Origin: Pseudomonas phage LUZ100
Sequence record: OP329100.1
Length of the DNA: 37,343 nt
Reading direction: 5' to 3' (one strand)
Shown one piece after another: positions 2,658-37,343 of the stretch. The notes beneath the pieces are model-generated. The model was not told the DNA's origin. It did no database searches and saw nothing but the letters and a program-made list of their open reading frames with translations. Position numbers and translations under genes: made by a program. Numbering within the stretch: the first letter of the stretch is position 1; each line of letters opens with the position of its first letter.

Positions 2658-2743
2658 TGGTGCTCGGAGCGGGACTCGAACCCGCAAGACCGTAGGTCGG
2701 AGCATTTTAAGTGCTCTGTGTCTACCAATTTCACCATCCGAGC
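2658..2743 (-). tRNA. tRNA-Leu (anticodon TAA), 86 nt with long variable arm; likely attP core
   Basis: Minus-strand read GCTCGGATGGTGAAATTGGTAGACACAGAGCACTTAAAATGCTCCGACCTACGGTCTTGCGGGTTCGAGTCCCGCTCCGAGCACCA folds with a 7-bp acceptor stem, 3-bp D stem, anticodon loop CTTAAAA, 5-bp T stem GCGGG/CCCGC and CCA. Confidence 0.8.
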
Positions 2744-2755
2744 GAGGAGATACCC

Positions 2756-3829
2756 ATGCCGGTAAAGCCAAGAGGTCGTGGCTTTGAGGCCACAGTTAAC
2801 CACCAAGGGGGGAAGTACCGGAGGCAATTCACAACCCAGGTCGAAGCCGAAGCCTGGGAGAAGGCGACCAAAGCCGCCCTGATGAGGGGCGAGATGGTAT
2901 CAGAAACAACCAACTCTGCCAACGGAAATCCTAGCACTCTCAAGGAGTTGGCTGACTTAACTTACAAGCGATTCTGGCAAGGGCGCCCTGGAGGAGAAAC
3001 GGCCCTACGAAACGCAAAGCAGTGCATCAATATCCTCGGTGAGGGGATGTCCCCAGGCTCAGTAAACGAACAGCGCATCGACGACATGGTGTTCGCCCTA
3101 GAGCAGCTCGGGCTGTTCGACAGTACGATCAACCGCAAGCTCTCCGCTTTGTCCAAGATGCTGACCTTCGCCTATGAGCGGGGCTACATCAGCCGCAAGC
3201 CGAAGATCGAACGCAAGAAAGAACCCCAGAACCGCATCCGCTACTTCGACGAAGCAGAGGAGCAGCTCATCCTGGGAGCCTTCACCCACTTCGGGATGCT
3301 CGACATGGTCGACTTCTGCATCGTTGCAATCGACACCGGTATGCGGGTCGGTGAGATTCTGCGGATCGAAGACCGGGACGTAGCCAATGGGCTGGTGTCC
3401 GTGTGGCGCACGAAGAACGGTAAGGCAAGATCCATCCCGATGACGAAGCGCGTGGCTGAGGTATTGGAACGCCGCTTCAAGGAGGAGCGTCGCCGGATGA
3501 ACACCATCGGCAACGTGAAAGCCTTTGAGGGGTGGAACCACAGCAAGATCCGCACGCTGTGGGATCGAGTGCGCCGTCACCTGAAACTCATGACCGACCC
3601 GCAGTTCGTACCCCATGCAATGCGGCACACCTTCTGCTCCCGGCTGGTTCAGCGTGGAGTGGACATCGTGACGGTCTCGAAGCTGGCCGGTCACAGCTCC
3701 ATCGTAGTCACCATGCGGTACGCTCACCTCGCTCCCGATAGTCTGGCCCATGCCATTCGGAAGCTGGAAGAACCCGCAAAAGATGTAAATCCCCAAGCTC
3801 GACACACGACACAAGTTGTGTCGCGGTAG
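2756..3829 (+). CDS. int: Tyrosine-type site-specific integrase
   Basis: RBS gaggagataccc-ATG at 2756; C-terminal catalytic motifs HAMRHTFCSRLVQRGVDIVTVSKLAGHSSIVVTMRYAHL (H-x-x-R...H...Y); the ORF-track extension from 2711 would overlap the tRNA. Confidence 0.85.
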   Translation: MPVKPRGRGFEATVNHQGGKYRRQFTTQVEAEAWEKATKAALMRGEMVSETTNSANGNPSTLKELADLTYKRFWQGRPGGETALRNAKQCINILGEGMSPGSVNEQRIDDMVFALEQLGLFDSTINRKLSALSKMLTFAYERGYISRKPKIERKKEPQNRIRYFDEAEEQLILGAFTHFGMLDMVDFCIVAIDTGMRVGEILRIEDRDVANGLVSVWRTKNGKARSIPMTKRVAEVLERRFKEERRRMNTIGNVKAFEGWNHSKIRTLWDRVRRHLKLMTDPQFVPHAMRHTFCSRLVQRGVDIVTVSKLAGHSSIVVTMRYAHLAPDSLAHAIRKLEEPAKDVNPQARHTTQVVSR

Positions 3830-3960
3830 TGTCGAGAGCCGTGTTTGATGCGGTAGTGGAAAGGTTGAACATCAATAAAATCAACCACTTACGCTACGCA
3901 TAGTCTCCTGCAACAGACTTAAAAGGTCTTGCATCCGACTATCCACTGGCACATTGAATA

Positions 3961-3988
3961 ACCCGGCATCGTCCGGGTTTTCTTTTCC
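3961..3988 (+). terminator. Rho-independent terminator after int
   Basis: acccgg-catcgt-ccgggt stem-loop followed by tttctttt. Confidence 0.6.
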
Positions 3989-4019
3989 CATCAACTATCC
4001 ACTGTCGCAACCTTTGCAG

Positions 4020-4052: not shown

Positions 4053-4080
4053 GTCACGGCTCTCTGACGCCCTGCTTGGC

Positions 4081-4103
4081 AATTACCACACAGTCTTGGA
4101 GCA
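4081..4103 (+). promoter_or_regulatory. Phage RNAP promoter, family A copy 1 (AATTACCACACAGTCTT|GGAGCA), upstream of the RNAP gene
   Basis: Matches the 7-copy family A consensus; resembles K11/T7/T3 promoters (AATTA at -17..-13, CACA at -9..-6, purine-rich GGA start). Confidence 0.6.
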
Positions 4104-4160
4104 CCGAGAGGTGACCTCCGAGGCCGGTTCCTTAAAGCCAAACTCAGAGAGATCCAATAG

Positions 4161-6686
4161 ATGACTTCCATCATCACCAACCAACTGATTCAGGAAATTG
4201 AGAACAACCAAGAGTGGCAAGAGAAGTTCGACCGTCAGGTAGAACTTGAGGAGAAGATGCGAGGTATGGGCGTCGACCGTCACTGGTCGGAGGTAGCCAA
4301 GGCCAGGGAGCGTGGTCAGGAAACCAGCGTCCGCTCCGTCCGCCGACTGATGAACTCGTCAGTCGCCAAGATCGCAGAAGGCATCCGCCAGTTCATCGAG
4401 AGCTGCGAGTCCGGCAAGGCTGGCCGCAAGCACAGCGCATACCCACTGCTCAAGCAGATCGAACCCGAGTCCGCAGCCCTGATCACCGCACGGGTGGTAC
4501 TGGATGGCGTGGCCAAGGGTGACCTGCTGGTTCCCCTGGCTCGCCGCGTTGCGTCCCTGATCGAGGACGAGCTGGCCTTCCGTGAGTTCGCCAAGGCGGA
4601 CAAGAAGACCTACGACTGGCTGGTCAAGCGCGAGAAGCGAGTCAACGGCAGCAGCTACCGCCGCCAGCGGCTGACCATGCTGCACAACATGGAGGCCCGC
4701 AACATCGCATGGCAGGAGTGGACTGCCCGCGAGTCCCTGCTGGTCGGCTCCAAGCTGATCGAGATCATGACCGAGACCACCGGCCTGATCCAGAAAGTCA
4801 CCCGCACCGTGGATGTGAAGCGCCAGGAGGTAGCCATCGAGGCCACCCCTGAGACCATCGCCTGGATCAACGAGGAGAACAACCGCTGCGAAGCTCTCTC
4901 CCCGGTGTACCTGCCCACCATCATCCCGCCTCGCCCCTGGACTTCACCGTTCGAGGGCGGCTACTGGACTCCGCGTGTCCGCCGACTGGCCCTGGTCAAG
5001 ACCCACTCGAAGGGGTACTTGGAGGAGCTGGCCGAACACGACATGCCGGAAGTCTACGATGCGATCAACGCCATGCAGCACACCGCCTGGGCCATCAATG
5101 GCCGGGTGCTGGAGGTGGTTCGCAACCTGTGGAACAACGGTGCCACTCTGGGTGGTATCCCTGCGGCTGACGATCTGCCGCTCCCGCCGAAGCCCCTGTT
5201 CCTTGAGCAGGAGCTGCCCCGCGAGGAGTGGTCGGAGGATCAGGTGCGCCAGTTCAAGGAGTGGAAGCGCGAGGCAACCGACACCTATGCGTCCAACGCG
5301 AAGCTGAAGTCCCTGCGTCTGCAGTTCGCCAAGGTGTTGATGATTGCCGAGATGTTCGAGCATGAGGAGGAAATCTACTTCCCGCACCAGTTCGACTTCC
5401 GTGGCCGGGCCTACGCTGTGCCGATGTTCCTGAACCCCCAAGGCAGCGACATCGCCAAGGGTCTGCTGGAGTTCGCCAATGCGGTAGCGATCAACGACGA
5501 GGAAGGTGCCAACTGGCTGGCCATCCACGGTGCCAACAGCTACGGCTACGACAAGGTCTCCCTGGCCGAGCGTGTGCGCTGGGTGCAGGAGAACGAGGGC
5601 GAGATCCTGGCCTGTGCTGCTGACCCGTACAGCCACAGCATGTGGGCCAAGGCCGACAAACCGTTCCAGTTCCTGGCGTTCTGCATCGAGTGGGCAGAGT
5701 TCAAGCGCGAGGGCTACGGCTACCTGTCGACCCTGCCCATCGCAATGGACGGTAGCTGCAACGGGCTGCAGAACTTCTCGGCCATGCTGCGTGATGCCAT
5801 CGGCGGCGAGGCCGTGAACCTCGTGCCCCAGGAGAAACCGGCGGACATCTACCAGAAGGTGGCCGACCGTGTGGTGCTGCGTGTCGAGGCTGATGCCATC
5901 GGCCAGGACGAGGAGCTGGCGAAGCTGGCCCAGGGCTGGCTCAAGCACGGCATCAACCGCAAGGTGTGCAAGCGCCCGGTGATGACCCTGGCCTACGGCG
6001 CCAAGGAGTTCGGCTTCAAGACCCAGGTGTTCGAGGACACCGTCATGCCGTACAAGCTGAAGGCTGGCAAGGAGTTCCCCTGGGAAGGCTCCGGCTGGGC
6101 TGCCGCTGAGTACATGGGCAAGCTGATCTGGGAGTGTGTCGGTGAGGTGGTGGTCGCTGCTCGTCAGGCTATGGACTGGCTGCAGAAGGCTGCGCGTCTG
6201 GCCGCGAAGGAAGGACTGCCGGTGCGCTGGAACACCCCGGACAATCTGGTCGTGCTCCAGGCGTACCCGAAGATGCTGACCGAGCGCATCGACCTGACCT
6301 TCGGGGGCAGCCGTCACCTGCTCACCGTGGCAGTCAGCCCGACCACCGAGCTGGATCGCAACAAGCAAGCCAACGGGATCAGCCCGAACTGGGTTCACTC
6401 GATGGACGCCAGCCACATGCGGGCCACTGTCCGCCGCTGCTGGAACGAGGGGATGCGCAGCTTCTCCCTGATCCACGACAGCTACGGCACCCACGCCGGG
6501 AACGCCTGGGCCTTGGCCAAGTTCCTGCGGGAGGAGTTCGTCATCATGTACGAGGAGGATGTGCTGGAAGACTTCAAGCGAGAACTGGAGCGGCAGCTCC
6601 CCGAAGGATCGGTGCTCGATCCGCTACCCCCGAAGGGCAACCTGAACTTGGCTCTGGTGCTGGAGTCCGCGTTCTTTTTTGCCTGA
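4161..6686 (+). CDS. T7-like single-subunit DNA-dependent RNA polymerase (841 aa)
   Basis: Collinear with T7 gene 1 product: PRPWTSPFEGGYWTPRVRRLALVKTHSK, DMPEVYDAINAMQHTAW, FPHQFDFRGRAYA, AMDGSCNGLQNFSAML, HDSYGTH, C-terminus PKGNLNLALVLESAFFFA. Confidence 0.95.
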   Translation: MTSIITNQLIQEIENNQEWQEKFDRQVELEEKMRGMGVDRHWSEVAKARERGQETSVRSVRRLMNSSVAKIAEGIRQFIESCESGKAGRKHSAYPLLKQIEPESAALITARVVLDGVAKGDLLVPLARRVASLIEDELAFREFAKADKKTYDWLVKREKRVNGSSYRRQRLTMLHNMEARNIAWQEWTARESLLVGSKLIEIMTETTGLIQKVTRTVDVKRQEVAIEATPETIAWINEENNRCEALSPVYLPTIIPPRPWTSPFEGGYWTPRVRRLALVKTHSKGYLEELAEHDMPEVYDAINAMQHTAWAINGRVLEVVRNLWNNGATLGGIPAADDLPLPPKPLFLEQELPREEWSEDQVRQFKEWKREATDTYASNAKLKSLRLQFAKVLMIAEMFEHEEEIYFPHQFDFRGRAYAVPMFLNPQGSDIAKGLLEFANAVAINDEEGANWLAIHGANSYGYDKVSLAERVRWVQENEGEILACAADPYSHSMWAKADKPFQFLAFCIEWAEFKREGYGYLSTLPIAMDGSCNGLQNFSAMLRDAIGGEAVNLVPQEKPADIYQKVADRVVLRVEADAIGQDEELAKLAQGWLKHGINRKVCKRPVMTLAYGAKEFGFKTQVFEDTVMPYKLKAGKEFPWEGSGWAAAEYMGKLIWECVGEVVVAARQAMDWLQKAARLAAKEGLPVRWNTPDNLVVLQAYPKMLTERIDLTFGGSRHLLTVAVSPTTELDRNKQANGISPNWVHSMDASHMRATVRRCWNEGMRSFSLIHDSYGTHAGNAWALAKFLREEFVIMYEEDVLEDFKRELERQLPEGSVLDPLPPKGNLNLALVLESAFFFA

Positions 6687-6736
6687 TACAATCCACTAGC
6701 GCATAGGTTGCGCATGTGTAACGTCGAGCCAGGCGG

Positions 6737-6759
6737 GATTACCACACAGGTATGGAAGA
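6737..6759 (+). promoter_or_regulatory. Phage RNAP promoter, family A copy 2 (GATTACCACACAGGTAT|GGAAGA)
   Basis: Family A consensus; tandem pair just after the RNAP gene, analogous to T7 phi1.1A/phi1.1B. Confidence 0.6.
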
Positions 6760-6783
6760 CCGCGCTGGCTCCACCCCCAAGGC

Positions 6784-6806
6784 GATTACCACACAGGTAT
6801 GGAAGA
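6784..6806 (+). promoter_or_regulatory. Phage RNAP promoter, family A copy 3, 47 bp from copy 2
   Basis: Identical 26-mer attaccacacaggtatggaagaccgc to copy 2. Confidence 0.6.
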
Positions 6807-7010: not shown

Positions 7011-7667
7011 ATGACCGACAAGAAAGCCCGCAACCCCCGTTACGTCACCCAGGTTGGTGTTGCCATCTACCCGCACCTCGTTGAGCCGGACACCAAGTTC
7101 AACGCCGAGGGCGAGTACAAGGTGAAGCTGCGCCTGTCCCCGGACTCGGTAATCACCGACGCCAAGGGCAAGCGTGTTGCTGACGTGCAGAGCTTCATCG
7201 ACGAGATGATGGGCAAAGCCCTGGAGAAGGCGCAGCAGGAGAACAAGGGCAAGATCAAGGAGGCCGATGCGCCCTACGAGATCGACGACGAGACCGGCGA
7301 AGTGCTGGTCAACTTCAAGCTGAAGGCCACCGGCAAGACCCGCGATGGCAAGGAGTTCACCCAGAAGCCCGCGCTGTTCGACGCCAAGGGCAAGCCCGCT
7401 GAGGTCAAGGGTGTCTGGGGCGGCAGCAAGATCAAGGTTTCGTTCGAGGTCGTGCCGTTCTACACCAAGCTGATCGGTGCCGGTGTCTCGCTACGCCTCA
7501 AGGCCGTGCAGATCATCGAGCTGGTAGCCGGTGGCAACGGCGGTTCCGCTGACAGCTACGGCTTCGGTGAGGAAGAAGGCTTCGAGGCTGAGGACGAAGC
7601 AGCCGACAACGGGTTCAGCTCCGACGACGAAGGCGGCTCCGCACCGGCTGACGACGAGGACTTCTGA
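7011..7667 (+). CDS. ssDNA-binding protein, T7 gp2.5-like (218 aa)
   Basis: Position after RNAP; acidic C-terminal tail ending ...ADDEDF (terminal Phe as in gp2.5); RBS gagga. Confidence 0.75.
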   Translation: MTDKKARNPRYVTQVGVAIYPHLVEPDTKFNAEGEYKVKLRLSPDSVITDAKGKRVADVQSFIDEMMGKALEKAQQENKGKIKEADAPYEIDDETGEVLVNFKLKATGKTRDGKEFTQKPALFDAKGKPAEVKGVWGGSKIKVSFEVVPFYTKLIGAGVSLRLKAVQIIELVAGGNGGSADSYGFGEEEGFEAEDEAADNGFSSDDEGGSAPADDEDF

Positions 7668-8113
7668 TGGCTGCTCCCCGAGAGGCCGGGCTTCGGCTCG
7701 GCTTCCGGTCGGGACTTGAGGAGAAGATCGCCCGAGAACTGGATGCCCACGGCATCGAGGTTCAGTACGAAACCGAACAGATCCGCTACGTCAAACCCGC
7801 CCGCGAAGCCAAGTACACCCCCGACTGGATACTGCCCAACGGAATCATCGTCGAGACCAAAGGCAGGTTCGTCGTCGAAGACCGCCAGAAACACCTGATC
7901 ATCAAGGAGCAGCACCCCGGCCTGGACGTGCGCTTCGTCTTTTCCAACTCCCGTACCCGCATCAGCAAGAACAGCAAGACCACCTACGCAATGTGGTGTG
8001 AGAAGTACGGGTTCCTGTTTGCCGACAAGTCCATCCCCGAGGCGTGGCTCAAAGAGCCGCACAGCCCGGAGCGTTGGGCTGCCCTGGAGAATGCACGAGT
8101 CAAGAAGAAATGA
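7667..8113 (+). CDS. Endonuclease I (T7 gp3-like Holliday junction resolvase)
   Basis: FRSGLEEKIARELD...YTPDWILPNGIIVETKG...KHLIIKEQHPGLDVRFVFS...FADKSIPEAWLKE collinear with T7 endonuclease I; start overlaps SSB stop (ATGA). Confidence 0.9.
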   Translation: MAAPREAGLRLGFRSGLEEKIARELDAHGIEVQYETEQIRYVKPAREAKYTPDWILPNGIIVETKGRFVVEDRQKHLIIKEQHPGLDVRFVFSNSRTRISKNSKTTYAMWCEKYGFLFADKSIPEAWLKEPHSPERWAALENARVKKK

Positions 8114-9259: not shown

Positions 9260-9916
9260 ATGAGCAAGCAACTGACTGTATGCGGCGTGGACATCAAGCA
9301 GGACGCCGAGGGCCGCTACTGCCTGAACGATTTCCACAGGGCTGCAGGTGATGACCAGAAGCACCGACCCAAGTATTGGTTGGAGAACTGCAACACCCAA
9401 GCCCTCGTAGCAGAAATTGAAAAGGGCGGATTCCCGCCTGTTTCGGTTAAGCCCGGACGCAGCGGCGGCACCTTCGTGGTGAAGGAACTGGTCTACGCCT
9501 ACGCCATGTGGATCAGCCCGAAGTTCCACCTCGAAGTCATCCGCTCCTACGACCGGCTGGCCACCGAGGGCGTGGCTGTCCACCAGAACGCAGCCGCTGA
9601 TGTGCTGGCCAACCCGCTCAAGTACATGCGCTCCCTGATCGAACAGGCAGAGAAGCTCCAGGCCGAGAACGAGGCCATGCACAAGGAGCTGAACCTCCTG
9701 ACTGTCGACGAGTACCGGGCGCTGACTCACCGCTACTTCAGCCACGGTTACAAGGTGCGCCTTGGCCGAGAGGCTGCCCGCGTCATGCGTGAGCAAGGGG
9801 GTCACCCTGAGCGTCAGGAGCGAACCATCCGCTCCGGTAAGGGAGAGCGAGTCGTGTCGGTCGGCGTCTACACCCGCGCTGCCTTGGAGCAAGCAGAACG
9901 TGAGCTGAGTGCATGA
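9260..9916 (+). CDS. KilA-N domain protein (218 aa)
   Basis: N-terminal LNDFHRAAG...KHRPKYWLENCNTQALVAEIE matches the KilA-N DNA-binding domain pattern; RBS ctggaggacagaacATG. Confidence 0.55.
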   Translation: MSKQLTVCGVDIKQDAEGRYCLNDFHRAAGDDQKHRPKYWLENCNTQALVAEIEKGGFPPVSVKPGRSGGTFVVKELVYAYAMWISPKFHLEVIRSYDRLATEGVAVHQNAAADVLANPLKYMRSLIEQAEKLQAENEAMHKELNLLTVDEYRALTHRYFSHGYKVRLGREAARVMREQGGHPERQERTIRSGKGERVVSVGVYTRAALEQAERELSA

Positions 9917-11568
9917 GCGAGTGGGTGCAAACCCACTTGCCTTGTCCCTGTGGCCAATCCTCTGACGCCTACTCGATCAACGACAAAGGTTGGGGGAAGT
10001 GCTTCTCGTGCGGGAAGAACTTCAACGAGGAGGCGTCGGACTCAACACCCAGAGGTAAACAGCAAGTGGCAGCAGTGAAAGAACTGGTGCCCTTCGGAGA
10101 GTACCGGGCACTAAGCAAACGCAAGATCACAGAGGAGACCTGCAAGAAGTTCGGCTACTTCGTCGGTGAGTTCAAAGAGCAGACCGTCCAAGTGGCCCCG
10201 TACCGCAACAACGAAGGCGAGGTCATCGCCCAGAAGGTGCGGTTCGCTGACAAGTCCTTCACCACCAGGGGCAAGTTCAAGGGCGTGGCCCTGTTCGGCC
10301 AGCACCTGTGGGGTGAAGGCGGCAAGAAGCTGGTCATCACCGAGGGCGAGATCGACTGCCTCACCGTGAGCCAGCTCCAGGGCAACAAGTGGCCCGTGGT
10401 GTCCATCCCCAACGGCGCTCAAGGCGCAGCCAACTCCATCAAGGAGAACCTCGAATGGGTGCTCACCTTCGAGGAAGTCATCCTGATGTTCGATCAGGAC
10501 GAGCCTGGACGTGAGGCTGCCATCAAGGTGGCCGAGCTGTTACCCCCAGGCAAAGCCAAGATCGCGTCCCTCCCGCTGAAAGACCCGAACGACATGCTCG
10601 TCGCTGGCCGTGGCCAGGAAGTGATCCAAGCAATCTGGAACGCAAAGGAGTACCGGCCCGATGGGCTGGTCTCCATCGACGACATCCTCGACGAGGTCGA
10701 GAAGCCCATCGAATGGGGCAAGCCCTGGTGCTTCGAGTCCCTGACCAAGCTGACCTACGGTCGCCGCGAGGGTGAGCTGTACGCCATCGGCGCTGGTACT
10801 GGCGTGGGCAAGACCGACTTCATGACCCAGCAGATCGCCTTCGACGTGGTCGAGCTGGGCGAGCATGTCGGCGTCATCTTCCTTGAGCAGAAGCCAGTCG
10901 AGACCGCCAAGCGGGTGGCCGGGAAGATCGCCGGTCGGCGCTTCCATGTGCCGGATGCTGGCTGGACTCCCGAGGAATTGAAGACAGCCGTGGCCAACCT
11001 CAAGGGGAAGGTCACCTTCTATGACTCCTGGGGCGAGACCGAGTGGGATGCGGTCAAGTCCAAGATCCGCTTCATGGTGGTCAGCCTGGGCATCAGGCAC
11101 ATCTACCTCGACCACCTCACGGCGATGGCCGACACCTCGAACGAGAAGGAATCCATCGAGCAACTGATGAAAGAGATGGCGGGCTTGGCCAACGAGCTGG
11201 GCTGCATCATCCACTTCGTCAGCCACCTGTCCACCCCGGAGGGCAAGCCTCACGAGGAAGGTGGCCGCGTGATGATCCGCCACTTCAAGGGCAGCCGCGC
11301 CATCGGCTTCTGGTCGTACTTCATGTTCGGCCTGGAGCGGAACCAGCAAGCCGAGGATGAGGAGGAACGGCAGACCACCACCTTCCGCATCCTCAAAGAC
11401 CGCTACACCGGCCAGTCCACCGGCCACACCTTGAGCCTCGGCTACGACCAAGAGACTGGTCGCCTGTTCGAGATCGCTCAGACCGCCGACGACTACGGCT
11501 TCGACGACAACCCGGCCAATCCCCAGGAGGGCATCGACCTGCCTTGGGAGGAAAAGCCGGATTTCTAA
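9913..11568 (+). CDS. DNA primase/helicase (T7 gp4-like)
   Basis: N-terminal Cys4 zinc ribbon CPCG...CFSCG, TOPRIM acidic residues (ITEGEIDCLT, FDQDEPG), Walker A GAGTGVGKTDF, Walker B IYLDHL. Confidence 0.9.
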   Translation: MSEWVQTHLPCPCGQSSDAYSINDKGWGKCFSCGKNFNEEASDSTPRGKQQVAAVKELVPFGEYRALSKRKITEETCKKFGYFVGEFKEQTVQVAPYRNNEGEVIAQKVRFADKSFTTRGKFKGVALFGQHLWGEGGKKLVITEGEIDCLTVSQLQGNKWPVVSIPNGAQGAANSIKENLEWVLTFEEVILMFDQDEPGREAAIKVAELLPPGKAKIASLPLKDPNDMLVAGRGQEVIQAIWNAKEYRPDGLVSIDDILDEVEKPIEWGKPWCFESLTKLTYGRREGELYAIGAGTGVGKTDFMTQQIAFDVVELGEHVGVIFLEQKPVETAKRVAGKIAGRRFHVPDAGWTPEELKTAVANLKGKVTFYDSWGETEWDAVKSKIRFMVVSLGIRHIYLDHLTAMADTSNEKESIEQLMKEMAGLANELGCIIHFVSHLSTPEGKPHEEGGRVMIRHFKGSRAIGFWSYFMFGLERNQQAEDEEERQTTTFRILKDRYTGQSTGHTLSLGYDQETGRLFEIAQTADDYGFDDNPANPQEGIDLPWEEKPDF

Positions 11569-11590
11569 CTATCCACTAGCGCATAGGTAC
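11567..11590 (+). promoter_or_regulatory. B element copy 7 (AACTATCCACTAGCGCATAGGTAC), 18 bp upstream of the DNAP start
   Basis: One of 9 copies of the ACTATCCACYAGCGCATAGG family; function unresolved (see findings). Confidence 0.4.
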
Positions 11591-11607: not shown

Positions 11608-13404
11608 ATGAAGACCCTTGAGTTCGACTGTGAAACAAACGGGCTGCTACACCAGCTCGACCGCGTCCATTCCCTCGTGATCAAGGACGCAACCACCGGG
11701 GAGCGTGGCTCCTTCGCTGACCAGCCGGGCTACTCGCCCATCAAAGAGGGGCTGGCTTGGCTGATGGAGGCTGACCTTGCGGTTGGTCATAATGTGGTCA
11801 AGTTCGACGTACCTGCGCTGCAGCAGGTCTACCCCTGGTTCGACATCCCGCTCGAACGGCTGCGTGACACTCTGGTACTGACCCGCCTGATCTGGCCGGA
11901 GATCGGTGACCGGGACACCGGCCTGATCCGCAAGGGGAAACTGCCAGGGAAGCTGCGAGGCTCCCACTCCTTGGAAGCCTGGGGCTATCGCCTCGGGGTC
12001 TACAAGGGTGAGTTCGGTAAGACCTCGGACTGGCAGGTCTGGACGCCTGAGATGCAGACGTACTGCGAGCAGGACGTTGAGGTCACCGATGCGCTGTGGA
12101 AGAAGATCCAGTCCAAGGAAGTGGCCGAGCGCGCCGTCGAGCTGGAGCACTGGTTCGCCTTCATCATCGGTCTGCAAGAGCGCCACGGGTTCGCCTTCAA
12201 CACCCAGGCAGCCGCTGCTCTGTACACCACCCTGGTGGCCGAGCGGGAGAAGCTGGACTCGGAACTCAAAGGCGCCTTCCGGCCCTGGTACGTCAACGCC
12301 GGGGTCGTCATGCCCAAGCGCCCGAACCGTACCCAGGGCATCGAGGCCGGGGTTCCGTACTGCAAGGTCACCCTGCAGGAGTTCAACCCAGCCAGCCGAC
12401 TGCAGATCGCTGACCGCCTGACCAAGCTGCACGGCTGGAAACCCCAGGAGTTCACCGATAGTGGCCAGCCCAAGGCCGACGAGACGGTGCTCTCCAAGCT
12501 GCCGTACCCAGCGGCCAAGCTCCTGGCTCGCCGGTTCCTGATCGAGAAGCGCATCGGGCAACTGGCCGAGGGGAACCAGGCTTGGCTCAAGCTGGAGCGC
12601 AAGGGGCGCATCCATGGCTCGGTGAACACCATCGGTGCCGTGACCGGGCGCTGTACCCACAGCCACCCCAACGTCGCCCAGGTGCCGTCAGTCCGCGCCC
12701 CATTCGGCAAGGAGTGTCGGGCACTGTTCGGTGCTGACCCTGGCTACGTCCAGATCGGTGCCGATGCCTCGGGCCTTGAGCTGCGCTGCTTGGCCCACTA
12801 CATGGCGCGGTATGACGGGGGAGCCTACGCCAAGGTTCTGCTCGAAGGTGACATCCACACGGAGAACCAGAAGGCAGCCGGTCTGCCCACTCGGGATAAC
12901 GCGAAGACGTTCATCTACGCCTACCTCTACGGGGCTGGCGACGAGAAGATCGGGCAGATCGTTGGCAAGGGTGCGAAGGAAGGGAAGAAGCTCAAGGAGA
13001 ACTTCCTGAAACGCACCCCCGCATTGAAGCGGCTACGCGAAGACGTTGCGTCAGCCGTGAAAAAGCGGGGCTACCTCGTCGGGATCGACGGGCGACACCT
13101 GCACATCCGATCCGACCACGCCGCCCTCAACACCCTCCTGCAATCAGCCGGTGCCCTGTTGGTTAAACAAGCCACGGTCAACTTGTATCGGGAGCTATCC
13201 ACCCGTGGATACGTCTTCGGCAAGGACTGGGCGATGTTGGCCCACGTTCACGACGAGTACCAGCTCCAGGCCAGGAAGGAGATCGCAGACGAAGTTGCCC
13301 AGGTAGCCGTGTGGGCCTTCCAGCAAGCGGGCCGCGACTTCAACTGGCGGTGCCCCCTGGATGGTGAGGCCAAGACCGGCACGAACTGGGCGGAGTGCCA
13401 CTGA
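11608..13404 (+). CDS. Family A DNA polymerase with 3'-5' exonuclease (T7 gp5-like, compact 598 aa)
   Basis: Exo I LEFDCETNGL; motif A GADASGLELRCLAHY; motif B KTFIYAYLYGAG; motif C HVHDEY. Confidence 0.9.
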   Translation: MKTLEFDCETNGLLHQLDRVHSLVIKDATTGERGSFADQPGYSPIKEGLAWLMEADLAVGHNVVKFDVPALQQVYPWFDIPLERLRDTLVLTRLIWPEIGDRDTGLIRKGKLPGKLRGSHSLEAWGYRLGVYKGEFGKTSDWQVWTPEMQTYCEQDVEVTDALWKKIQSKEVAERAVELEHWFAFIIGLQERHGFAFNTQAAAALYTTLVAEREKLDSELKGAFRPWYVNAGVVMPKRPNRTQGIEAGVPYCKVTLQEFNPASRLQIADRLTKLHGWKPQEFTDSGQPKADETVLSKLPYPAAKLLARRFLIEKRIGQLAEGNQAWLKLERKGRIHGSVNTIGAVTGRCTHSHPNVAQVPSVRAPFGKECRALFGADPGYVQIGADASGLELRCLAHYMARYDGGAYAKVLLEGDIHTENQKAAGLPTRDNAKTFIYAYLYGAGDEKIGQIVGKGAKEGKKLKENFLKRTPALKRLREDVASAVKKRGYLVGIDGRHLHIRSDHAALNTLLQSAGALLVKQATVNLYRELSTRGYVFGKDWAMLAHVHDEYQLQARKEIADEVAQVAVWAFQQAGRDFNWRCPLDGEAKTGTNWAECH

Positions 13405-13616: not shown

Positions 13617-13945
13617 TGTTCAAGAACCTGATCGCCACCCTGTTGATCGTTGTCGCCCTGGTCGCTGGCCCGGCCCAAGCCCGTGGCTTCTCGGCACCGG
13701 CTGTCCGTGTTGCCCCTGTGGTTCGCATGGCGCCGACCCCGAAGCCGGTCTACACGCCCAAGCCGCAGGTGGCCCCGCGTTCCACCGCTTCGACCGTCAC
13801 CACCACCAGCTCGACCTCTCGCACCTCCACCGATAGCGGCAGCTCTGCAGTCAGCACCGCCATCACCTGGGGCTTCATCGGCGCCATGCTCGGCTCGACC
13901 TTCGGTGACGACGATGACGAGGAGGAGCAGGAGGACGCCCAGTGA
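13616..13945 (+). CDS. Secreted protein with Sec signal peptide, S/T-rich middle and acidic tail (110 aa)
   Basis: MFKNLIATLLIVVALVAGPAQA|RG signal peptide (AxA site); then PTPKPVYTPKPQ... TSSTSRTSTDSGSS...; C-terminus DDDDEEEQEDAQ. Confidence 0.55.
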   Translation: MFKNLIATLLIVVALVAGPAQARGFSAPAVRVAPVVRMAPTPKPVYTPKPQVAPRSTASTVTTTSSTSRTSTDSGSSAVSTAITWGFIGAMLGSTFGDDDDEEEQEDAQ

Positions 13946-14676
13946 GAGCGCAGTACGTTGACCACATGGGCAGCGACCTGAGCGTGGTGAACGCTGCCCG
14001 CGTGTCCTTCGACAAGGTGTCCCAATGGGAACGCCCGGTGCTGCGGGTCGAGACCTACATCCACCCGCACAACGGCGACGAGATAGAGCACAAGGTACTG
14101 GGCGAGCCGCGCCTCTCCCAGGCCGACTCCAGGCTGATCCGCTACCTCGCCAAGCACGACCACTGGACACCCTTCGCCCACACCAACATCACCCTGCGCA
14201 TGAAAGCTCCGGTGCCGATCCGCACGCAATGCTTCAAGCACAAGCAGGGTCTGGTGGAGAACGAGGAGTCTCGCCGGTACATCAGCTCGACCCCTGAGCT
14301 GTTCGTCCCGTCCGTGTTCCGCAGCAAGCCCGAAGGCTCGGCCAAGCAAGGCTCTGCCGGTGAGCACCCGCGCAGCCATGAGTGGCGCCGGGAGTACCGC
14401 ATGGCTGGCGAGTACGCGATCCGCCTGTACGAGGACATGATCCGTGACGGCGTCTGCCCGGAACAGGCCCGCTTCATCCTGCCGCAAGGCTGCGAGGTGA
14501 ACTGGATCTGGACTGGCAACCTGTACGCCTTCGCCAACTTCTACCTGAAACGCACCGACCCGCACGCCCAGCACGAGATTCAAGTGCTGGCCCAGGAGGT
14601 CGGCTCAATCATCGAACCGCTGTTCCCAGTCTCCTGGGCGGCTTTGACACGTCTGGAGGAATCCACCAGTGGATGA
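13942..14676 (+). CDS. ThyX-like (flavin-dependent thymidylate synthase fold) protein with a divergent active-site motif
   Basis: HWTPFAHTNITL...FKHKQGLVENEESRRY aligns to the ThyX RHRx7SxRY signature (RHR replaced by KHK); ARFILPQGCEVNWIWTGNLYAFANFYLKR matches the ThyX C-terminal AR..LP...NLR.W..F..LR block. Confidence 0.5.
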   Translation: MRAQYVDHMGSDLSVVNAARVSFDKVSQWERPVLRVETYIHPHNGDEIEHKVLGEPRLSQADSRLIRYLAKHDHWTPFAHTNITLRMKAPVPIRTQCFKHKQGLVENEESRRYISSTPELFVPSVFRSKPEGSAKQGSAGEHPRSHEWRREYRMAGEYAIRLYEDMIRDGVCPEQARFILPQGCEVNWIWTGNLYAFANFYLKRTDPHAQHEIQVLAQEVGSIIEPLFPVSWAALTRLEESTSG

Positions 14677-14902
14677 ATTGAACCTTGATCTGAGCGGCAT
14701 CGAAGACCCGGTGACCGCCCGCGTGACCGATCTGATCCGCCTCAGTGAAGCCCTGGACAAGGCCCAGGAGGAAGTCGGCCAGAACGCCTTGAAGGCTGGC
14801 CTAGCGTTCGTGCTGGAAGACCTCAAGCGCGTGGTGTTCCCGCCCGTTGCAGTCCAGGGCGACAACATCATCCCGTTCCCCGGAGGCCGCGATGTCCACT
14901 GA
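14669..14902 (+). CDS. Small acidic hypothetical protein (77 aa, GTG start)
   Basis: GTG start overlapping the ThyX-like stop; no domain recognised. Confidence 0.35.
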   Translation: MDELNLDLSGIEDPVTARVTDLIRLSEALDKAQEEVGQNALKAGLAFVLEDLKRVVFPPVAVQGDNIIPFPGGRDVH

Positions 14903-15674
14903 AACCATCGCACTGATCGACGGCGACATCTTCGCCTATGAGATCGCTGCCGGTGCCGAGGAGCCGATCCACTGGGGTGACGGCCTCTGGACTCTCCATG
15001 CGTGGGAAGACCAGGGCCGACTCCGGGTGGTCGACCGGGTGCATGAGGTGGCCGATGCGATCAACGCCGACCGCATCATCGTGGCCCTGACGGATGACGT
15101 GAACTGGCGCAACTCGGTGCTCCCTTCCTACAAGGAGAACCGGGTCGGCCAGCGCAAGCCGATGATCCTCAAGCCGCTCAAGGAGCAGCTCAAGGAGAGC
15201 TTCGAGACCTTCATCCGTCCGGGCCTGGAGGCTGACGACGTGCTCGGCATCCTCTCCACATGGCCGAAGCTCAAGGGCCGCAAGGTCATCATCACCAAGG
15301 ACAAAGACCTCAAGACCATCCCCGGTCTGCACTTCCACACGCACCGCACCGAGCTGGGTGTGTTCGAGGTCACCGAGCACCAAGCCAACTACCACCACCT
15401 GCAGCAAGCCCTGACCGGCGACATCACCGATGGCTACAAGGGCTGCCCAGGTATCGGCCCGGCCAAGGCCGACAAGATCCTCCTGCCGTTCGCCCACGAG
15501 ACCAAGCACGACCAGTTCTTCGACGTGCAAGGCGCCTGGGAGAAGGTCGTCGAGGCGTTCGCCAAGGCCGGTCTCTCCGAAGAAGAAGCCCTGGTTCAGG
15601 CCCGCGTGGCCCGCATCTGCAGGGCATCCGACTACGACTTCAAGACTAAGAAGGTGAAGCTATGGAATCCGTGA
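14892..15674 (+). CDS. 5'-3' exonuclease (T7 gp6-like, FEN/PIN fold)
   Basis: RBS ccggaggccgcgATG; IDGDIFAYE, GLEADDVLG, ITKDKD, GDITDGYKGCPGIGPAKA (H3TH) motifs. Confidence 0.85.
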   Translation: MSTETIALIDGDIFAYEIAAGAEEPIHWGDGLWTLHAWEDQGRLRVVDRVHEVADAINADRIIVALTDDVNWRNSVLPSYKENRVGQRKPMILKPLKEQLKESFETFIRPGLEADDVLGILSTWPKLKGRKVIITKDKDLKTIPGLHFHTHRTELGVFEVTEHQANYHHLQQALTGDITDGYKGCPGIGPAKADKILLPFAHETKHDQFFDVQGAWEKVVEAFAKAGLSEEEALVQARVARICRASDYDFKTKKVKLWNP

Positions 15675-15982
15675 TCGACATGGTCAACCACCCTGGCCAT
15701 TACAAGGGGAAGCTCGACCCCATGCTTGCCGCTGTACGCGGTGCCCTCGTCGAGGACGTGGACGGCATCAACATCGAGTGCTTCGAGGCCATGGTCTCGA
15801 TGATGACCATCGAGGAGCTGCGCGGTTACCTGCGTGGCAACTCCTTCAAGTACCGCTGGCGTTACCAGAAGAAGGCCGGGATTCAGGACTTGGAGAAGGC
15901 CGAGTGGTACGAGAAGAAGCTGCTGCGCCTGGAGCGTGCGGTGCGTGACTACCTGTTCGCCCAGGAGGACGCAGCAGCATGA
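15662..15982 (+). CDS. DUF3310-like phage protein (VNHPGHY...INIEC motif)
   Basis: N-terminal VNHPGHYKG and IECFEAM resemble the DUF3310 signature common in phage nucleotide-metabolism clusters. Confidence 0.45.
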   Translation: MESVIDMVNHPGHYKGKLDPMLAAVRGALVEDVDGINIECFEAMVSMMTIEELRGYLRGNSFKYRWRYQKKAGIQDLEKAEWYEKKLLRLERAVRDYLFAQEDAAA

Positions 15983-16281
15983 TCGAGAGCCTGGAAACCG
16001 CTGTGATCAAGTGGGCGGAAGACCGGGGCATCTTCGAGAAAGCCACGCCCGCCAGCCAATGGGAGAAGACCCACGAGGAGGTCTTGGAGTTGATCGAGGG
16101 CATCGTCAAGAACGACCGCCGCGAGATCGAGGATGCCATTGGCGACACCGTCGTGACCCTCATCATCCAGGCCCGAATGCACGGGCTGTCCCTCGGTCAG
16201 TGCCTCGCCTCGGCCTACGACCAGATCAAGAACCGAACCGGAAAGATGATCAACGGAGTTTTTGTCAAAGATGCACCTTGA
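15979..16281 (+). CDS. MazG-like nucleotide pyrophosphohydrolase (100 aa)
   Basis: THEEVLELIEGIVKNDRREIEDAIGDTVVTLIIQARMHGLSL matches the MazG EExxE...E..D metal-binding helix pattern. Confidence 0.6.
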   Translation: MIESLETAVIKWAEDRGIFEKATPASQWEKTHEEVLELIEGIVKNDRREIEDAIGDTVVTLIIQARMHGLSLGQCLASAYDQIKNRTGKMINGVFVKDAP

Positions 16282-16392
16282 GACCTACCACGGACTCACC
16301 CTGGACAATGGGCGTGATGCCCGACTGACAGCCCTCGCAGGAGACCTTCTGCGGGGGTTTTATCTTTCTGGGGGTGAGAATGACCCCCGGTC

Positions 16393-16415
16393 AATTACCA
16401 CACAGTCTTGGAGGA
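16393..16415 (+). promoter_or_regulatory. Phage RNAP promoter, family A copy 5 (AATTACCACACAGTCTT|GGAGGA), phi6.5 analogue
   Basis: Family A consensus; followed by an A-rich leader shared with the right-end copy. Confidence 0.6.
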
Positions 16416-16442
16416 CAGGGAAAAAACTCATAGGGATAACTT

Positions 16443-16640
16443 ATGGATCAACTACCTGTGATTCCTAAAGACCTACTTGATGCTCTGGATCAGCGGTTCC
16501 CTGATCGCTGTCCTGAGCCTGAGTGGTCTGATCGTGAAATCTGGATGCGCGTCGGTGAGCGCCGGGTAATCCGGTTGCTCCGTCGCGTGTATGAGCAACA
16601 GCAAGAGAACGTGTTGGAGAACACCCATGTGCTTCGCTAA
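16443..16640 (+). CDS. Small hypothetical protein (65 aa), gp6.5 position
   Basis: First ORF after promoter A5; weak RBS aggga. Confidence 0.4.
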   Translation: MDQLPVIPKDLLDALDQRFPDRCPEPEWSDREIWMRVGERRVIRLLRRVYEQQQENVLENTHVLR

Positions 16641-17590: not shown

Positions 17591-19132
17591 ATGGAACAAA
17601 CGGCTGGCGGGCGCTACAACGCCCTGATCAGCTTCCGTGAGCCATTCCTTCAACGCGCACGAGAAGCTGCCAAACTCACCATCCCGTCGCTCCTCCCTCC
17701 TGCAAACCACTCCGCACACTCCAAGCTCCCGACCCCGTTCCAGGGGCTGGGCGCTCGCGGCGTCAACAACCTCTCCTCGAAGCTGCTCCTGGCACTCATG
17801 CCGCCGAACAGTCCGTTCTTCCGGCTGACGGTGGACGACTACACCCTGGAGCAGATGACCCAGCAAGAGGGCATGAGGGCCGAGGTTGAGGAAGCCCTGG
17901 GCAAGATCGAGCGTGCTGTCATGTACGACATCGAGTCCCAGGCCATCCGCGTCTCGACCGGCGAAGGTCTCAAGCAGTTGCTCGTTGCGGGCAACGTGCT
18001 GCTGTACCTCGCCCCCGAGGGAGGCATGAAGGTCTACCGCCTGGATCGCTACGTCGTCCGCCGTGACCCCATGGGGAACGTGCTGGAGATCATCGTGCAG
18101 GACGTGGTCTCGCCCGAGGCACTACCTCAGGACTTCCTGGCCAAGCTCAAGGACGCCCCGCAGTTGACCAAGGAGAAGACCCTGGAGCTGTACACCCGGA
18201 TCTACCGGGACGGCAACGAGTGGCGGATCTACCAAGAGGTCAAGGGTGAGCGTGTCCCCGGCACCGAGGGCACCTATCCGCTGGACAAGTCCCCGTGGCT
18301 GGCCTTGCGGTTCACCAAGATCGACGGCGAAGACTATGGCCGTGGCTACGTCGAGGAGTACTACGGTGACCTCCGGTCGCTGGAAGCCTTGACCCAGGCC
18401 ATCGTTGAAGGCTCGGCTGCCGCTGCCAAGGTGCTGTTCCTCGTGAACCCTAATGGCACCACCGAGCAGCGAACCCTGACCGAGTCCCCCAACGGGGCTG
18501 TCCGTACCGGTAATGCCCAGGACGTCACTGTCCTGCAGGTGGAGAAGTTCGCTGACTTCCGCATCGCCTTCGAGACCATCGAGGCGATCAGCCAGCGGCT
18601 GTCCTTCGCGTTCCTGCTCAACACCGCCGTTCAGCGTGGTGGCGAGCGCGTGACCGCCGAGGAGATTCGGTACATGGCCGGTGAGCTGGAGGATGCCCTT
18701 GGCGGCGTCTACTCGATCCTCTCCCAGGAGTTCCAGTTCCCCCTGGTGCAGCGCCTGATCCTGCAACTGGAGAAGCGCAAGAAGATCCCGGCACTCCCGA
18801 AGGACACCGTCCGCCCGACCATCACCACCGGCCTGGAAGCCCTTGGCCGTGGGCACGACCTGAACAAGCTCGATGCCTTCATCCAGGGCGTGAACCAGAC
18901 GTTCGGCCCGGAGGTGGTCGCTCGCTACCTCAACGTCGGGGACTACATGACCCGTCGCGGTACAGCGCTTGGCCTGGACATGAAGGGTCTGGTGCGCAGC
19001 GAAGACGAAGTCAAGGCGATGGAGCAACAGCAAGCCCAGGAAGAACAGATGGCCCAGCTCGGCCAGATGCTCGCCCAGGGCGGTATGGGAATGGCAACCG
19101 AAGTAGTCAAGGCAGGTGTGAAGAATGGCTGA
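17591..19132 (+). CDS. Head-to-tail connector (portal) protein, T7 gp8-like
   Basis: Collinear with T7 gp8: TIPSLLPP, GARGVNNLSSKLLLALMPP, YRLDRYVVRRDPMGNVLEI, GERVTAEEIRYMAGELEDALGGVYSILSQEFQFPLVQ. Confidence 0.95.
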   Translation: MEQTAGGRYNALISFREPFLQRAREAAKLTIPSLLPPANHSAHSKLPTPFQGLGARGVNNLSSKLLLALMPPNSPFFRLTVDDYTLEQMTQQEGMRAEVEEALGKIERAVMYDIESQAIRVSTGEGLKQLLVAGNVLLYLAPEGGMKVYRLDRYVVRRDPMGNVLEIIVQDVVSPEALPQDFLAKLKDAPQLTKEKTLELYTRIYRDGNEWRIYQEVKGERVPGTEGTYPLDKSPWLALRFTKIDGEDYGRGYVEEYYGDLRSLEALTQAIVEGSAAAAKVLFLVNPNGTTEQRTLTESPNGAVRTGNAQDVTVLQVEKFADFRIAFETIEAISQRLSFAFLLNTAVQRGGERVTAEEIRYMAGELEDALGGVYSILSQEFQFPLVQRLILQLEKRKKIPALPKDTVRPTITTGLEALGRGHDLNKLDAFIQGVNQTFGPEVVARYLNVGDYMTRRGTALGLDMKGLVRSEDEVKAMEQQQAQEEQMAQLGQMLAQGGMGMATEVVKAGVKNG

Positions 19133-20830: not shown

Positions 20831-20906
20831 TGGCATGTAGCTCAGATGGTAGAGCACCCGGCTGTTAACCGGGCGGTCGCAGGTTCGAGTCCTGCCGTGC
20901 CAGCCA
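20831..20906 (+). tRNA. tRNA-Asn (anticodon GTT), 76 nt
   Basis: TGGCATGTAGCTCAGATGGTAGAGCACCCGGCTGTTAACCGGGCGGTCGCAGGTTCGAGTCCTGCCGTGCCAGCCA: cloverleaf with 7-bp acceptor stem (one G-U), anticodon loop CTGTTAA, T-loop TTCGAGT, CCA end. Confidence 0.85.
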
Positions 20907-22146: not shown

Positions 22147-22168
22147 CAACTATCCACCATCGCATAGG
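22147..22168 (+). promoter_or_regulatory. B element copy 8 (AACTATCCACCATCGCATAGGA), between capsid stop and gp11 RBS
   Basis: Member of the 9-copy B family. Confidence 0.4.
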
Positions 22169-34510: not shown

Positions 34511-34532
34511 CAATCCACCAGTGCATAGGTAC
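34511..34532 (+). promoter_or_regulatory. B element copy 9 (CAATCCACCAGTGCATAGGTAC) upstream of the HNH and terminase genes
   Basis: Member of the B family. Confidence 0.4.
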
Positions 34533-36704: not shown

Positions 36705-36780
36705 AACATGGATGTGACTGAGGGGAGCAGGAGGCTCCTCTCGGTCTCTTTGCAAGATCGCTGCAAGATCGACGACGTTC

Positions 36781-36803
36781 AATTACCACACAGTTCTGGA
36801 GGA
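36781..36803 (+). promoter_or_regulatory. Phage RNAP promoter, family A copy 7 (AATTACCACACAGTTCT|GGAGGA), phiOR analogue at the right end
   Basis: Family A consensus; A-rich leader about 80% identical to the leader of copy 5. Confidence 0.6.
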
Positions 36804-36860
36804 AAGGGGAAAAAGAATAGGGAAAAACTTATTGATTACTTATAGATACAGACACTAGAT

Positions 36861-36962
36861 CCTCTGTCAGATGTCTGCTGCTTTCCCTCCACTGACCATG
36901 ATCATCATTGTCCATCCATCCAATCACTGACACCAGGGCTTCACCCTCTGTCAGTTGTCTGC
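36861..36962 (+). repeat. Right-end repeats: 18-mer cctctgtcagaTgtctgc / cctctgtcagtTgtctgc (36861-36878, 36945-36962)
   Basis: Two copies with one mismatch in the AT-rich region before the DTR; 11-bp tandem tgcaagatcg(c) x2 at 36751-36771. Confidence 0.5.
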
Positions 36963-37099
36963 AAGTCCCGCCTCAAGTCCTACCTCAAGCCTCCCATCAA
37001 GCCCAACCTAAACCCGACCTGACCCGTTGAATCGACGGGGCAGCTTCAGGGGAACCCCTTGGTTTTTGCCAAAAATGCGAGACGGTATAGCGCCAACCC

Positions 37100-37343
37100 T
37101 GGCCCTGGAGTTCCCCCCGGTGGGGTGGGCACCTGGTCTGCGAATCGAGGCCGGTGCCGGGGGCTGCCGGTGCTGGTCGGGGGGCTGGCGACACAAGCCA
37201 CGACACAAGATGCCCGCCAAGCCGCGCCGTTGCTGGGCTTGCGAGAGATTAGGAATCCATCGGCCTATCTAGTGGGCGCGCTACCGGGGCAATCCTGGGG
37301 CTTTCCTGGGCGTTCTAGTGGGCTGGCCTGGGGCTTGGCCTTG
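37100..37343. repeat. Right direct terminal repeat (DTR)
   Basis: Exact copy of bases 1-244. Confidence 0.9.

Follow-up and report, generated by a model that had tools for sequence, protein, structure and literature searches.

Paired A/T- and purine-rich promoter leaders in Pseudomonas phage LUZ100 as candidate secondary-type replication origins of the T7 kind

Replication of bacteriophage T7 starts at the promoters phi1.1A/B, and secondary origins, "e.g. phiOR and phi6.5", are possible (PMC8373140, 2021). A plasmid with phiOR as its sole origin requires the loss of RNase HI, and the authors of that study discuss priming from R-loops (PMC8373140); phiOR was employed as an origin also in a later work (bioRxiv 10.1101/2024.07.25.605042). 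Here, two promoters of Pseudomonas phage LUZ100 (sequence record OP329100.1), A5 in the middle of the genome and A7 at its right end, together with the leaders transcribed from them, are compared with these sites. By gene neighbourhood, A5 is the counterpart of T7 phi6.5 and A7 is the counterpart of phiOR. Because the two promoters combine these positions with the physical signature of T7 origin promoters, we tentatively favour, a little short of even confidence, the view that they are T7-type promoter-coupled unwinding or R-loop elements able to prime DNA synthesis, i.e. sites of the secondary type.

The whole stretch of DNA that was analysed (37,343 bp; the window) is a complete T7-like podophage genome with a GC content of about 0.60 and with all major genes on the + strand. 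It contains seven phage-polymerase promoters (ATTACCACACAG); where 0.45 matches to the core CAATTACCACACAGT and its near variants would be expected, the window has 7, every one on the + strand. The first transcribed nucleotide (nt), +1, was placed by alignment to the T7 layout of -17..+6, at GGAG, 18 nt past the C of CAATT. The promoters and the parts of the two sites, including one open reading frame (ORF), are as follows (MFE, minimum free energy of folding):

4080 (A1), 6736 and 6783 (A2/A3), 8624 (A4), 16392 (A5), 20615 (A6) and 36780 (A7), + strand: promoter sites
16330..16369, + strand: terminator-like hairpin and T-run (13-bp stem at 16330-16359, then TTATCTTTCT), ending the DNA-metabolism block upstream of A5
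16392..16409, + strand: promoter A5, CAATTACCACACAGTCTT, with an exact CAATTACCACACAGT core; predicted +1 at 16410
16410..16427, + strand: A5 initially transcribed segment GGAGGACAGGGAAAAAAC, purine-rich, with an A-run; MFE of RNA +1..+30, -1.6 kcal/mol
16428..16446, + strand: small hairpin TCATAGG-GATAA-CTTATGG, containing the box ACTTATGGA
16421..16481, unstranded: second least stable and second most A/T-rich 60-bp stretch, reaching about 40 nt into the coding region
16443..16640, + strand: 65-aa ORF (phrog_4970), the first gene past A5
36750..36771, + strand: tandem TGCAAGATCG (two copies), directly upstream of A7; retained in relatives with other promoter sequences
36780..36797, + strand: promoter A7, CAATTACCACACAGTTCT, with an exact CAATTACCACACAGT core, in the phiOR position; predicted +1 at 36798
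36798..36827, + strand: A7 polypurine tract (29/30 purine); hybrid-over-duplex rank 0.0016, RNA MFE 0.0
36816..36847, + strand: hairpin AATAGG-GAAAAA-CTTATT, then the tandem boxes AACTTATTGAT and TACTTATAGAT
36809..36869, unstranded: 60-bp stretch with the lowest stability and the highest A/T content in the genome
36861..36878, + strand: CCTCTGTCAGATGTCTGC, first repeat copy on the A7 transcript; conserved and multiplied in relatives
36945..36962, + strand: CCTCTGTCAGTTGTCTGC, second repeat copy
37100..37343, unstranded: right copy of the 244-bp direct terminal repeat; A7 transcription enters it, with no conserved ORF between

An earlier inspection of the letters alone (the sequence-only reading) had described leader strings at 16410-16446 and 36798-36834 with about 80% identity. 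Both strings are present, each after an exact copy of CAATTACCACACAGT, and the identity amounts to 79% (30/38) with two 1-nt gaps and to 70% (26/37) without gaps. When the promoters are included, A5 and A7 are 77% identical over 61 nt. Local alignment of +7..+60 (promoter and +1..+6 excluded) gave a score of 27 for the A5/A7 pair and 8-18 for other promoter pairs, and the score of 27 was reached by 2 of 5000 composition-preserving shuffles (P ~4e-4). Among the seven promoters, the shared leader occurs only at A5 and A7. An nhmmer profile of the leader, built from the window and its close relatives, matched only 16410-16458 and 36798-36856 in the window; its matches in related loci (about 1.3 Mb) were likewise confined to the corresponding sites in mid-genome and at the right end. 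Moreover, ACTTATNGA occurs three times in the genome, always within the A5/A7 leaders, against 0.19 occurrences expected.

Megablast and blastn searches of the region against GenBank phages revealed no match at the DNA level; close and intermediate relatives are present in IMG/VR. In the close relatives, the mid-genome leader is retained through the ribosome site and the ATG. Their right-end leaders retain GGAGGAAAGGGGAAAA and TACTTATAGA and miss about 14 nt of the window sequence, namely the first part of the block at 36816-36847, which is the part of A7 most like the ribosome-site/start region of A5. With these nucleotides, the window has its tandem boxes, AACTTATTGAT and then TACTTATAGAT. 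Since the closest relatives lack them, the identity of roughly 80% is in part a peculiarity of this genome. In lineages with other promoter cores (ATTAAGTGACAGT, GATTAGGNCGCAC and ATTAGTGAACAGT), leaders at both sites are purine- and A/T-rich, and the 60-nt GC minima past the promoters belong to the lowest 0.01-2% for their loci. The composition is retained at both sites in relatives whose portals are 73-80% identical and whose promoters differ. The right-end promoter of Rhizobium phage RHEph01, whose RNA polymerase (RNAP) is the best match to that of the window (47% identical), is likewise followed by a 90%-purine leader (rank 0.0002).

Mid-genome and right-end leaders also resemble each other within individual genomes. 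In contig 3300029153_000001, they align with a score of 32 (reached by 0/3000 shuffles), compared with 16 and 23 against their window orthologues, and in contig 2927991490_000002 with a score of 34, compared with 27 for the window pair. Hence, in at least two lineages, the two leaders evolve in concert.

The physical properties of the two sites set them apart from the rest of the genome. As the sequence-only reading had stated, the leaders are unusually A/T- and purine-rich: the lowest-GC 60-nt windows genome-wide are 36810-36869 (0.30) and 16421-16480 (0.35), and the longest purine run of the genome (20 nt) lies at 36798-36817. By nearest-neighbour energies, 36809-36868 (-68.6 kcal/mol) is the least stable 60-bp duplex and 16422-16481 (-72.0) the second least stable, compared with a genome mean of -90.5 (standard deviation 4.2). 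At +1..+30, an RNA:DNA hybrid is favoured over the duplex beyond the other five promoters (ranks 0.0016 for A7 and 0.015 for A5), and the MFE of the nascent RNA is 0.0 at A7 and -1.6 at A5, compared with -11.0 and -11.1 kcal/mol for the 5'-hairpin starts of A1 and A6. Folding of +1..+30 revealed no stable +1 stem-loop of the T7 phi10/phi3.8/phi17 leader type at A5 or A7, and no long RNase III-type hairpin was found by folding across either promoter; for 16340-16460, only the upstream terminator-like hairpins and the small start-codon hairpin were predicted (z -1.43). The leaders of A1, A4 and A6 are non-coding as well, yet not A/T-rich.

The same calculation for T7 gave +1..+30 MFEs of 0.0 for phiOL, -0.5 for phi6.5, -1.6 for phi13 and -1.9 for phiOR, compared with -13.4 for phi10 and phi3.8 and -11.5 for phi17. 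The T7 leaders with the lowest GC are, in order, those of phiOL, phi1.1B and phi6.5, followed by phi10 and phiOR, and the 6.5, OR, 1.1B and OL leaders are all in the top 0.5% for A/T richness, like A5 and A7.

A7 lies 76 nt past the stop codon of the large-terminase gene and 320 nt ahead of the terminal repeat (bases 1-244 recur exactly at 37100-37343), and so the phiOR-like position ascribed to it by the sequence-only reading, between terminase gene and repeat, is borne out. Its transcript meets no gene before the genome end and crosses conserved TCTGTCAG repeats into the terminal repeat. A conserved ORF was sought downstream of A7 and none was found; at 36872, relatives have TTG or TCG in place of the ATG. 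Since the A7 leader is untranslated, its composition is not owed to translation. At A5, the tract runs into the 65-aa ORF, in which codons 2-16 have a GC content at third positions (GC3) of 0.20 compared with 0.65 in the remainder, the lowest value of 29 genes (0.33-0.47 for the same codons in relatives of the clade). This synonymous-site A/T bias argues for selection on the nucleotides themselves, at the DNA or RNA level. The co-evolving leader pair and the synonymous-site bias are the most interesting features of the system.

The two halves of the A5 leader differ in character. The purine/A-run half (16410-16427) is the part common with every right-end leader. The hairpin in the other half carries the ribosome-site-like AGGGA in its 5' arm and loop and the AUG (16443) in its 3' arm; its 7 bp form the sole consensus structure across 9 mid-genome leaders, with three pairs preserved through two-sided changes, all of which come from one divergent sequence. 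The 3' half is best read as the translation-start element of the first late gene. Gene order at the site is exonuclease/DUF3310/MazG, A5, 65-aa ORF, 194-aa ORF, gp7.3-like protein and portal, and homologues of the 65-aa ORF precede the portal gene in 74 of 80 related loci.

If A5 and A7 act as origins, the phage RNAP would start at GGAGGA and yield a purine-rich RNA unable to fold on itself. With a pyrimidine template and the weakest duplex of the genome, this RNA would tend to remain annealed, and the resulting R-loop would be put to use in infection: the RNA's 3' end would be extended by the T7-type DNA polymerase, and the displaced strand would load the primase-helicase. T7 origins composed of a promoter and an A/T-rich tract are described as working by priming from RNAP transcripts of this kind. 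Of the elements of a T7-type origin, a promoter, a weak downstream duplex, a cognate replisome and phi6.5/phiOR synteny are present here, the replisome comprising a primase/helicase (phrog_239, E 2.4e-188), a DNA polymerase (PF00476) and a T7 single-stranded DNA-binding protein (SSB; PF21265). In this view, each site would have a second role, A5 as the leader of the late operon and A7 as a promoter reading into the concatemer junction. GTC pentamers occur nearby (TTGTC within CAGTTGTCTGC and TGGTC at about 16535), but such pentamers are to be expected by chance; the rule of the T7 primase is 5'-(G/T)2GTC-3' (PMC12839067), which may not be that of the primase of this phage.

Several observations weigh against an origin function. 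The A5/A7 tracts contain 60-70% A+T over about 60 bp, compared with about 75-80% at the T7 primary origin, although the deviation of A+T from the genome mean is of similar size in both phages. In RHEph01 and many distant relatives, the mid-genome promoter abuts the gene without an A/T-rich leader. Selection for translation at the A5 start codon, together with the conserved hairpin, could explain much of the A/T richness there, and the composition of A5 and A7 need not be selected for replication. In T7, secondary origins are used only when the primary origin has been deleted, and in the window the position of the T7/T3 primary origin is occupied by other promoters:

6736..6800, + strand: tandem promoters A2/A3, directly past the RNAP gene, without an A/T-rich tract

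The curve of cumulative G-C has its maximum at 7745 and its minimum at the right end (37118), with no inflection at 16.4 kb; the maximum, at about 7.7 kb, is next to the tandem promoters past the RNAP gene. Thus, of the T7-like origin function proposed by the sequence-only reading, the analogy in position and composition withstood the tests, while other functions compete with it and the skew makes no turn at A5. Its comparison with phiOL was not upheld, since no phage promoter lies between the left repeat and 4080.

GC skew was rejected as an indicator of origins in this genome. From about 7.7 kb to the right end, C exceeds G on the coding strand, a polarity opposite to that of T7 and T3. It matches that of RHEph01 (L160), in which the cumulative maximum lies at 7664; in both phages the RNAP gene ends no more than about 1 kb from the maximum, which in RHEph01 lies just before that end. 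The skew therefore reflects something other than A5 and A7.

A2/A3 consists of two copies 47 nt apart in the window and of three in several close relatives (L015, L023 and L032), with leaders of ordinary GC (0.53-0.60). A2/A3 and A4 have a common initially transcribed sequence, GGAAGACCGC, which suggests a separate, class II-like promoter class. According to a bolder version of the origin view, which we regard as quite improbable, the post-RNAP position has lost its A/T tract in this clade of temperate T7-like phages, and the co-evolving mid-genome and right-end pair of promoter and polypurine tract are the real origins, at which the polypurine RNA at the 5' end of the transcript works in the manner of a retroviral polypurine tract, with a lasting hybrid that primes the phage DNA polymerase. 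In that improbable case, A5 would couple late transcription and the onset of translation to the initiation of replication.

Expression and packaging alone might also account for both sites, a possibility that we take seriously but hold to be doubtful. A5 would then be a class III-like promoter, the first of the late ones, whose A-rich, unstructured 5' untranslated region sets translation of the first late gene together with a start-codon hairpin. A7 would send RNAP through the concatemer junction, so that ends are processed and DNA is packaged, or would serve late transcription of early genes; the likeness of the leaders would stem from duplication or gene conversion seeded by the identical cores, with no priming in normal infection. 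The AUG hairpin as sole consensus structure of the mid-genome leaders fits this explanation. So does a translation-start context for ACTTATAG, which in one relative stands directly ahead of the start codon of the RNAP gene, and the 14-nt A5-like block that close relatives lack looks like a recent conversion or duplication. Between A7 and the terminal repeat there are TCTGTCAG and CCTCAAG-type repeats, comparable with the ACCTAAAG repeats of T7. The T7 phiOR region is tied also to concatemer-junction transcription and packaging, and phiOR was reportedly placed within pacB by Chung and Hinkle in 1990. The T7 packaging signal consists of PacB and PacC (PMC9860248). However, expression and packaging leave unexplained why the untranslated A7 leader is extreme in purine and A/T content across lineages that differ in sequence and promoter, why A1 and A6 (the latter the most highly expressed late leader, before the capsid region) have stable 5' hairpins, and why, among promoters with the same core, it is constantly the mid-genome and right-end ones that are paired; nor does the window contain an exact + strand ATCTGTT.

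Two further explanations are less likely than either of the above. The leaders could be recognition elements for one trans-acting DNA- or RNA-binding factor, for example a phage or host protein bound at the CATAGG-N5-CTTATG palindrome or the ACTTATNGAT box, which would place the late operon under common control with the right-end transcript; conceivably, A7 RNA even titrates, as a decoy, a repressor that acts on translation of the 65-aa gene. This is unlikely, although the box is confined to the A5/A7 leaders, the hairpin copies of A5 and A7 differ by a pairing-preserving double change (C:G to A:U), the leaders change together within genomes, a winged-helix regulator is among the phage proteins, and the two TGCAAGATCG copies upstream of A7 are conserved across promoter specificities. 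The hairpin is missing from the A7 leaders of the closest relatives, composition is better conserved across lineages than sequence, no candidate binding protein was identified, and the clear palindromic operator-like motif of the genome, TATCCAC..GTGGATA, differs in sequence. Less probable still is a neutral relic of promoter duplication whose A/T richness only reflects its non-coding nature within a genome of high GC content. A/T richness is generally greater between genes, where several other low-GC windows are also located, but the A1, A4 and A6 leaders lack such richness, the tract continues into coding sequence at synonymous sites, the feature is kept at both sites in relatives with diverged portals and different promoters, and the A5/A7 similarity is hardly expected by chance at the P value given above.

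Around A7, several other elements were observed. The tandem TGCAAGATCG copies look like an iteron-like or protein-binding site; they are conserved in L069, which has a different promoter core, and L089 has a comparable GCAAGTTCG/GGAAGTTCG pair on the upstream side of its mid-genome promoter. Downstream, the repeat CCTCTGTCAG[A/T]TGTCTGC is present in two copies (up to four or more in relatives), and CAAGTCC/CCTCAAG-type short repeats (36962-37020) lie between these copies and the terminal repeat; by analogy, all of them might act as signals for pausing, processing or packaging. No exact + strand copy of ATCTGTT, the class II pause signal of T7, exists anywhere in the window. A related motif, TCTGTCAGNTGT, has two copies after A7 against 0.82 expected (21/100 shuffles reach two) and is conserved and multiplied in relatives, and the RNAP of this phage may read a pause signal other than ATCTGTT. 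A structured non-coding RNA past A7 was considered: in the RNAalifold model, a CTTTCCCTCC tract pairs with the purine tract that lies about 80 nt before it at the 5' end, with 0 compensatory pairs among 6 near-identical sequences. In some 99%-identical relatives (L063-L066), an extra promoter and an inserted ORF are located between the terminase gene and the right-end promoter, and the right-end leader module is kept downstream of the insertion.

On the upstream side of A5, the mid-genome promoter of L079, L087 and L090 is abutted by an ORF ending in ...NFFEGRVTDYNHKGMEGDWGWE*, which, judged by eye from its tail alone, may encode a ribonucleotide-reductase small subunit. In the window, MazG is in that place, yet a remnant of the last ~25 nt of the ORF is retained at 16354-16391 (TGGGGGTGAGAATGACCCCC), which points to a deletion or replacement upstream of A5.

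The remaining genes and motifs of the window that were considered are:

2321-2650: winged helix-turn-helix (wHTH) regulator
2711-3829: tyrosine integrase (PF00589), just upstream of the RNAP gene
4161-6686: single-subunit RNAP
7011-7667: gp2.5-like SSB
7667-8113: endonuclease I
9913-11568: primase-helicase
11608-13404: family A DNA polymerase
13942-14676: ThyX
14847-15674: 5'-3' exonuclease
15662-15982: DUF3310 protein
15979-16281: MazG
17591-19132: portal
35010-36704: large terminase
377-392, 578-593, 3940-4011, 6690-6705, 11570-11585, 13196-13211, 14660-14675, 22151-22166, 34512-34527 and 35001-35016: copies of the motif [T/A]ATCCAC..[G/T][C/T]GCATA

A full tRNA-Leu(taa)-like sequence (minus strand, 2658-2743) overlaps the 5' end of the integrase gene. 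Together, the integrase, this sequence and the wHTH protein suggest that this T7-like phage is temperate and that, like RHEph01, it has an attachment site of the tRNA type. A tRNA-Asn(gtt) lies at 20831-20906, between A6 and the capsid gene, and RHEph01 has a tRNA-Asn in the equivalent place. At the gathering score, Rfam matched only two tRNAs in the whole window, and the leaders match no family. A scan of genome contigs for hosts gave only three distant or fragmentary matches, with no information on the leaders; two of the IMG/VR relatives bear identifiers that, from the contig names, look like those of isolate genomes. Promoter A1 (region 4080-4160) is directly upstream of the RNAP gene, where autoregulatory or positive-feedback expression of RNAP is possible; to our knowledge, T7 has no phage promoter directly upstream of its RNAP gene.

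The motif [T/A]ATCCAC..[G/T][C/T]GCATA has 13 matches against 0.14 expected, and its non-palindromic copies are all on the + strand. Early promoters with perfect TTGACA-N17-TAAGAT elements hold two copies in their spacer, and two copies (TATCCACCCGTGGATA and TATCCACTGATGGATA) are completely palindromic. Several others (6690, 11570, 22151 and 34512) closely follow a stop codon or precede a start codon by a few tens of nt. The motif has the look of an operator to which a dimeric regulator binds, perhaps the wHTH protein, and its core resembles a DnaA box.

Should A5 and A7 prove to be origins, the T7 origin rule, i.e. a phage promoter followed by the weakest duplex of the genome and an unstructured purine-rich transcript, would extend to a distant, GC-rich, integrase-bearing branch of the Autographiviridae. 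Duplex stability and nascent-RNA structure past phage promoters would then form a sequence-only predictor of origins; applied to T7, it places OL, 1.1B, 6.5 and OR among the lowest-GC leaders, with OL, 6.5 and OR nearly devoid of RNA structure. If the origin view is wrong, A5 and A7 are ordinary late-promoter leaders. Leader co-evolution and the synonymous-site A/T bias are concrete signs of selection on the DNA or RNA itself.

Among known systems, T7 phiOR is the closest in place to A7. Both lie between the large-terminase gene and the right terminal repeat (549 nt from the repeat in T7, 320 nt in A7), give a purine-rich unstructured transcript (GGGAGAGGAGGGACGAAAGG in T7, MFE -1.9) over low-GC DNA, and have short repeats ahead of the terminal repeat; each of the two genomes has a single ACTTATAG, which falls within this leader (nt 39273 in T7, 36838 in the window). 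Of 17 T7 leaders, that of phiOR aligns best to A7, with a score of 25 that was reached by 8/5000 shuffles before correction for the 17 comparisons. The resemblance is weak and is not seen with T3 phiOR; as it was also picked after the fact, sequence homology of A7 and T7 phiOR was set aside as a lead only. The promoter sequences are unrelated, the window has no equivalent of gene 19.5 and no ATCTGTT, and origin activity has been demonstrated for T7 phiOR only.

T7/T3 phi6.5, the first promoter of class III, is, like A5, the first promoter past the exonuclease block, ahead of small virion-associated genes and the portal gene. In T7, the stretch behind it is likewise among the most A/T-rich of the genome (rank 0.0018; that of A5 is second overall in the window), and its nascent RNA is unstructured. 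In T3, however, a 72-nt RNase III stem-loop, R6.5, is annotated across phi6.5, whereas no long hairpin spans A5, and phrog_4970 has no Pfam match, hence neither the DUF2717 (gp6.5) nor the DUF5476 (gp6.7) domain.

The primary origin of T7/T3 (phi1.1A/1.1B or phi1.05) shares with A5 and A7 a promoter followed by the weakest duplex, as well as the type of replisome. It differs in position, as its A/T-rich tract is past gene 1 (GC 0.25 over +7..+67 in the T7 1.1B leader), where the window has A2/A3 with ordinary GC. Finally, R-loop and polypurine primers such as ColE1 RNA II, constitutive stable DNA replication and the retroviral polypurine tract are comparable in manner of working only: they have no homology to A7, whose tract is at the extreme 5' end of the transcript, but, as at A5 and A7, a purine-rich RNA is placed on a pyrimidine template and the hybrid is favoured over the duplex.

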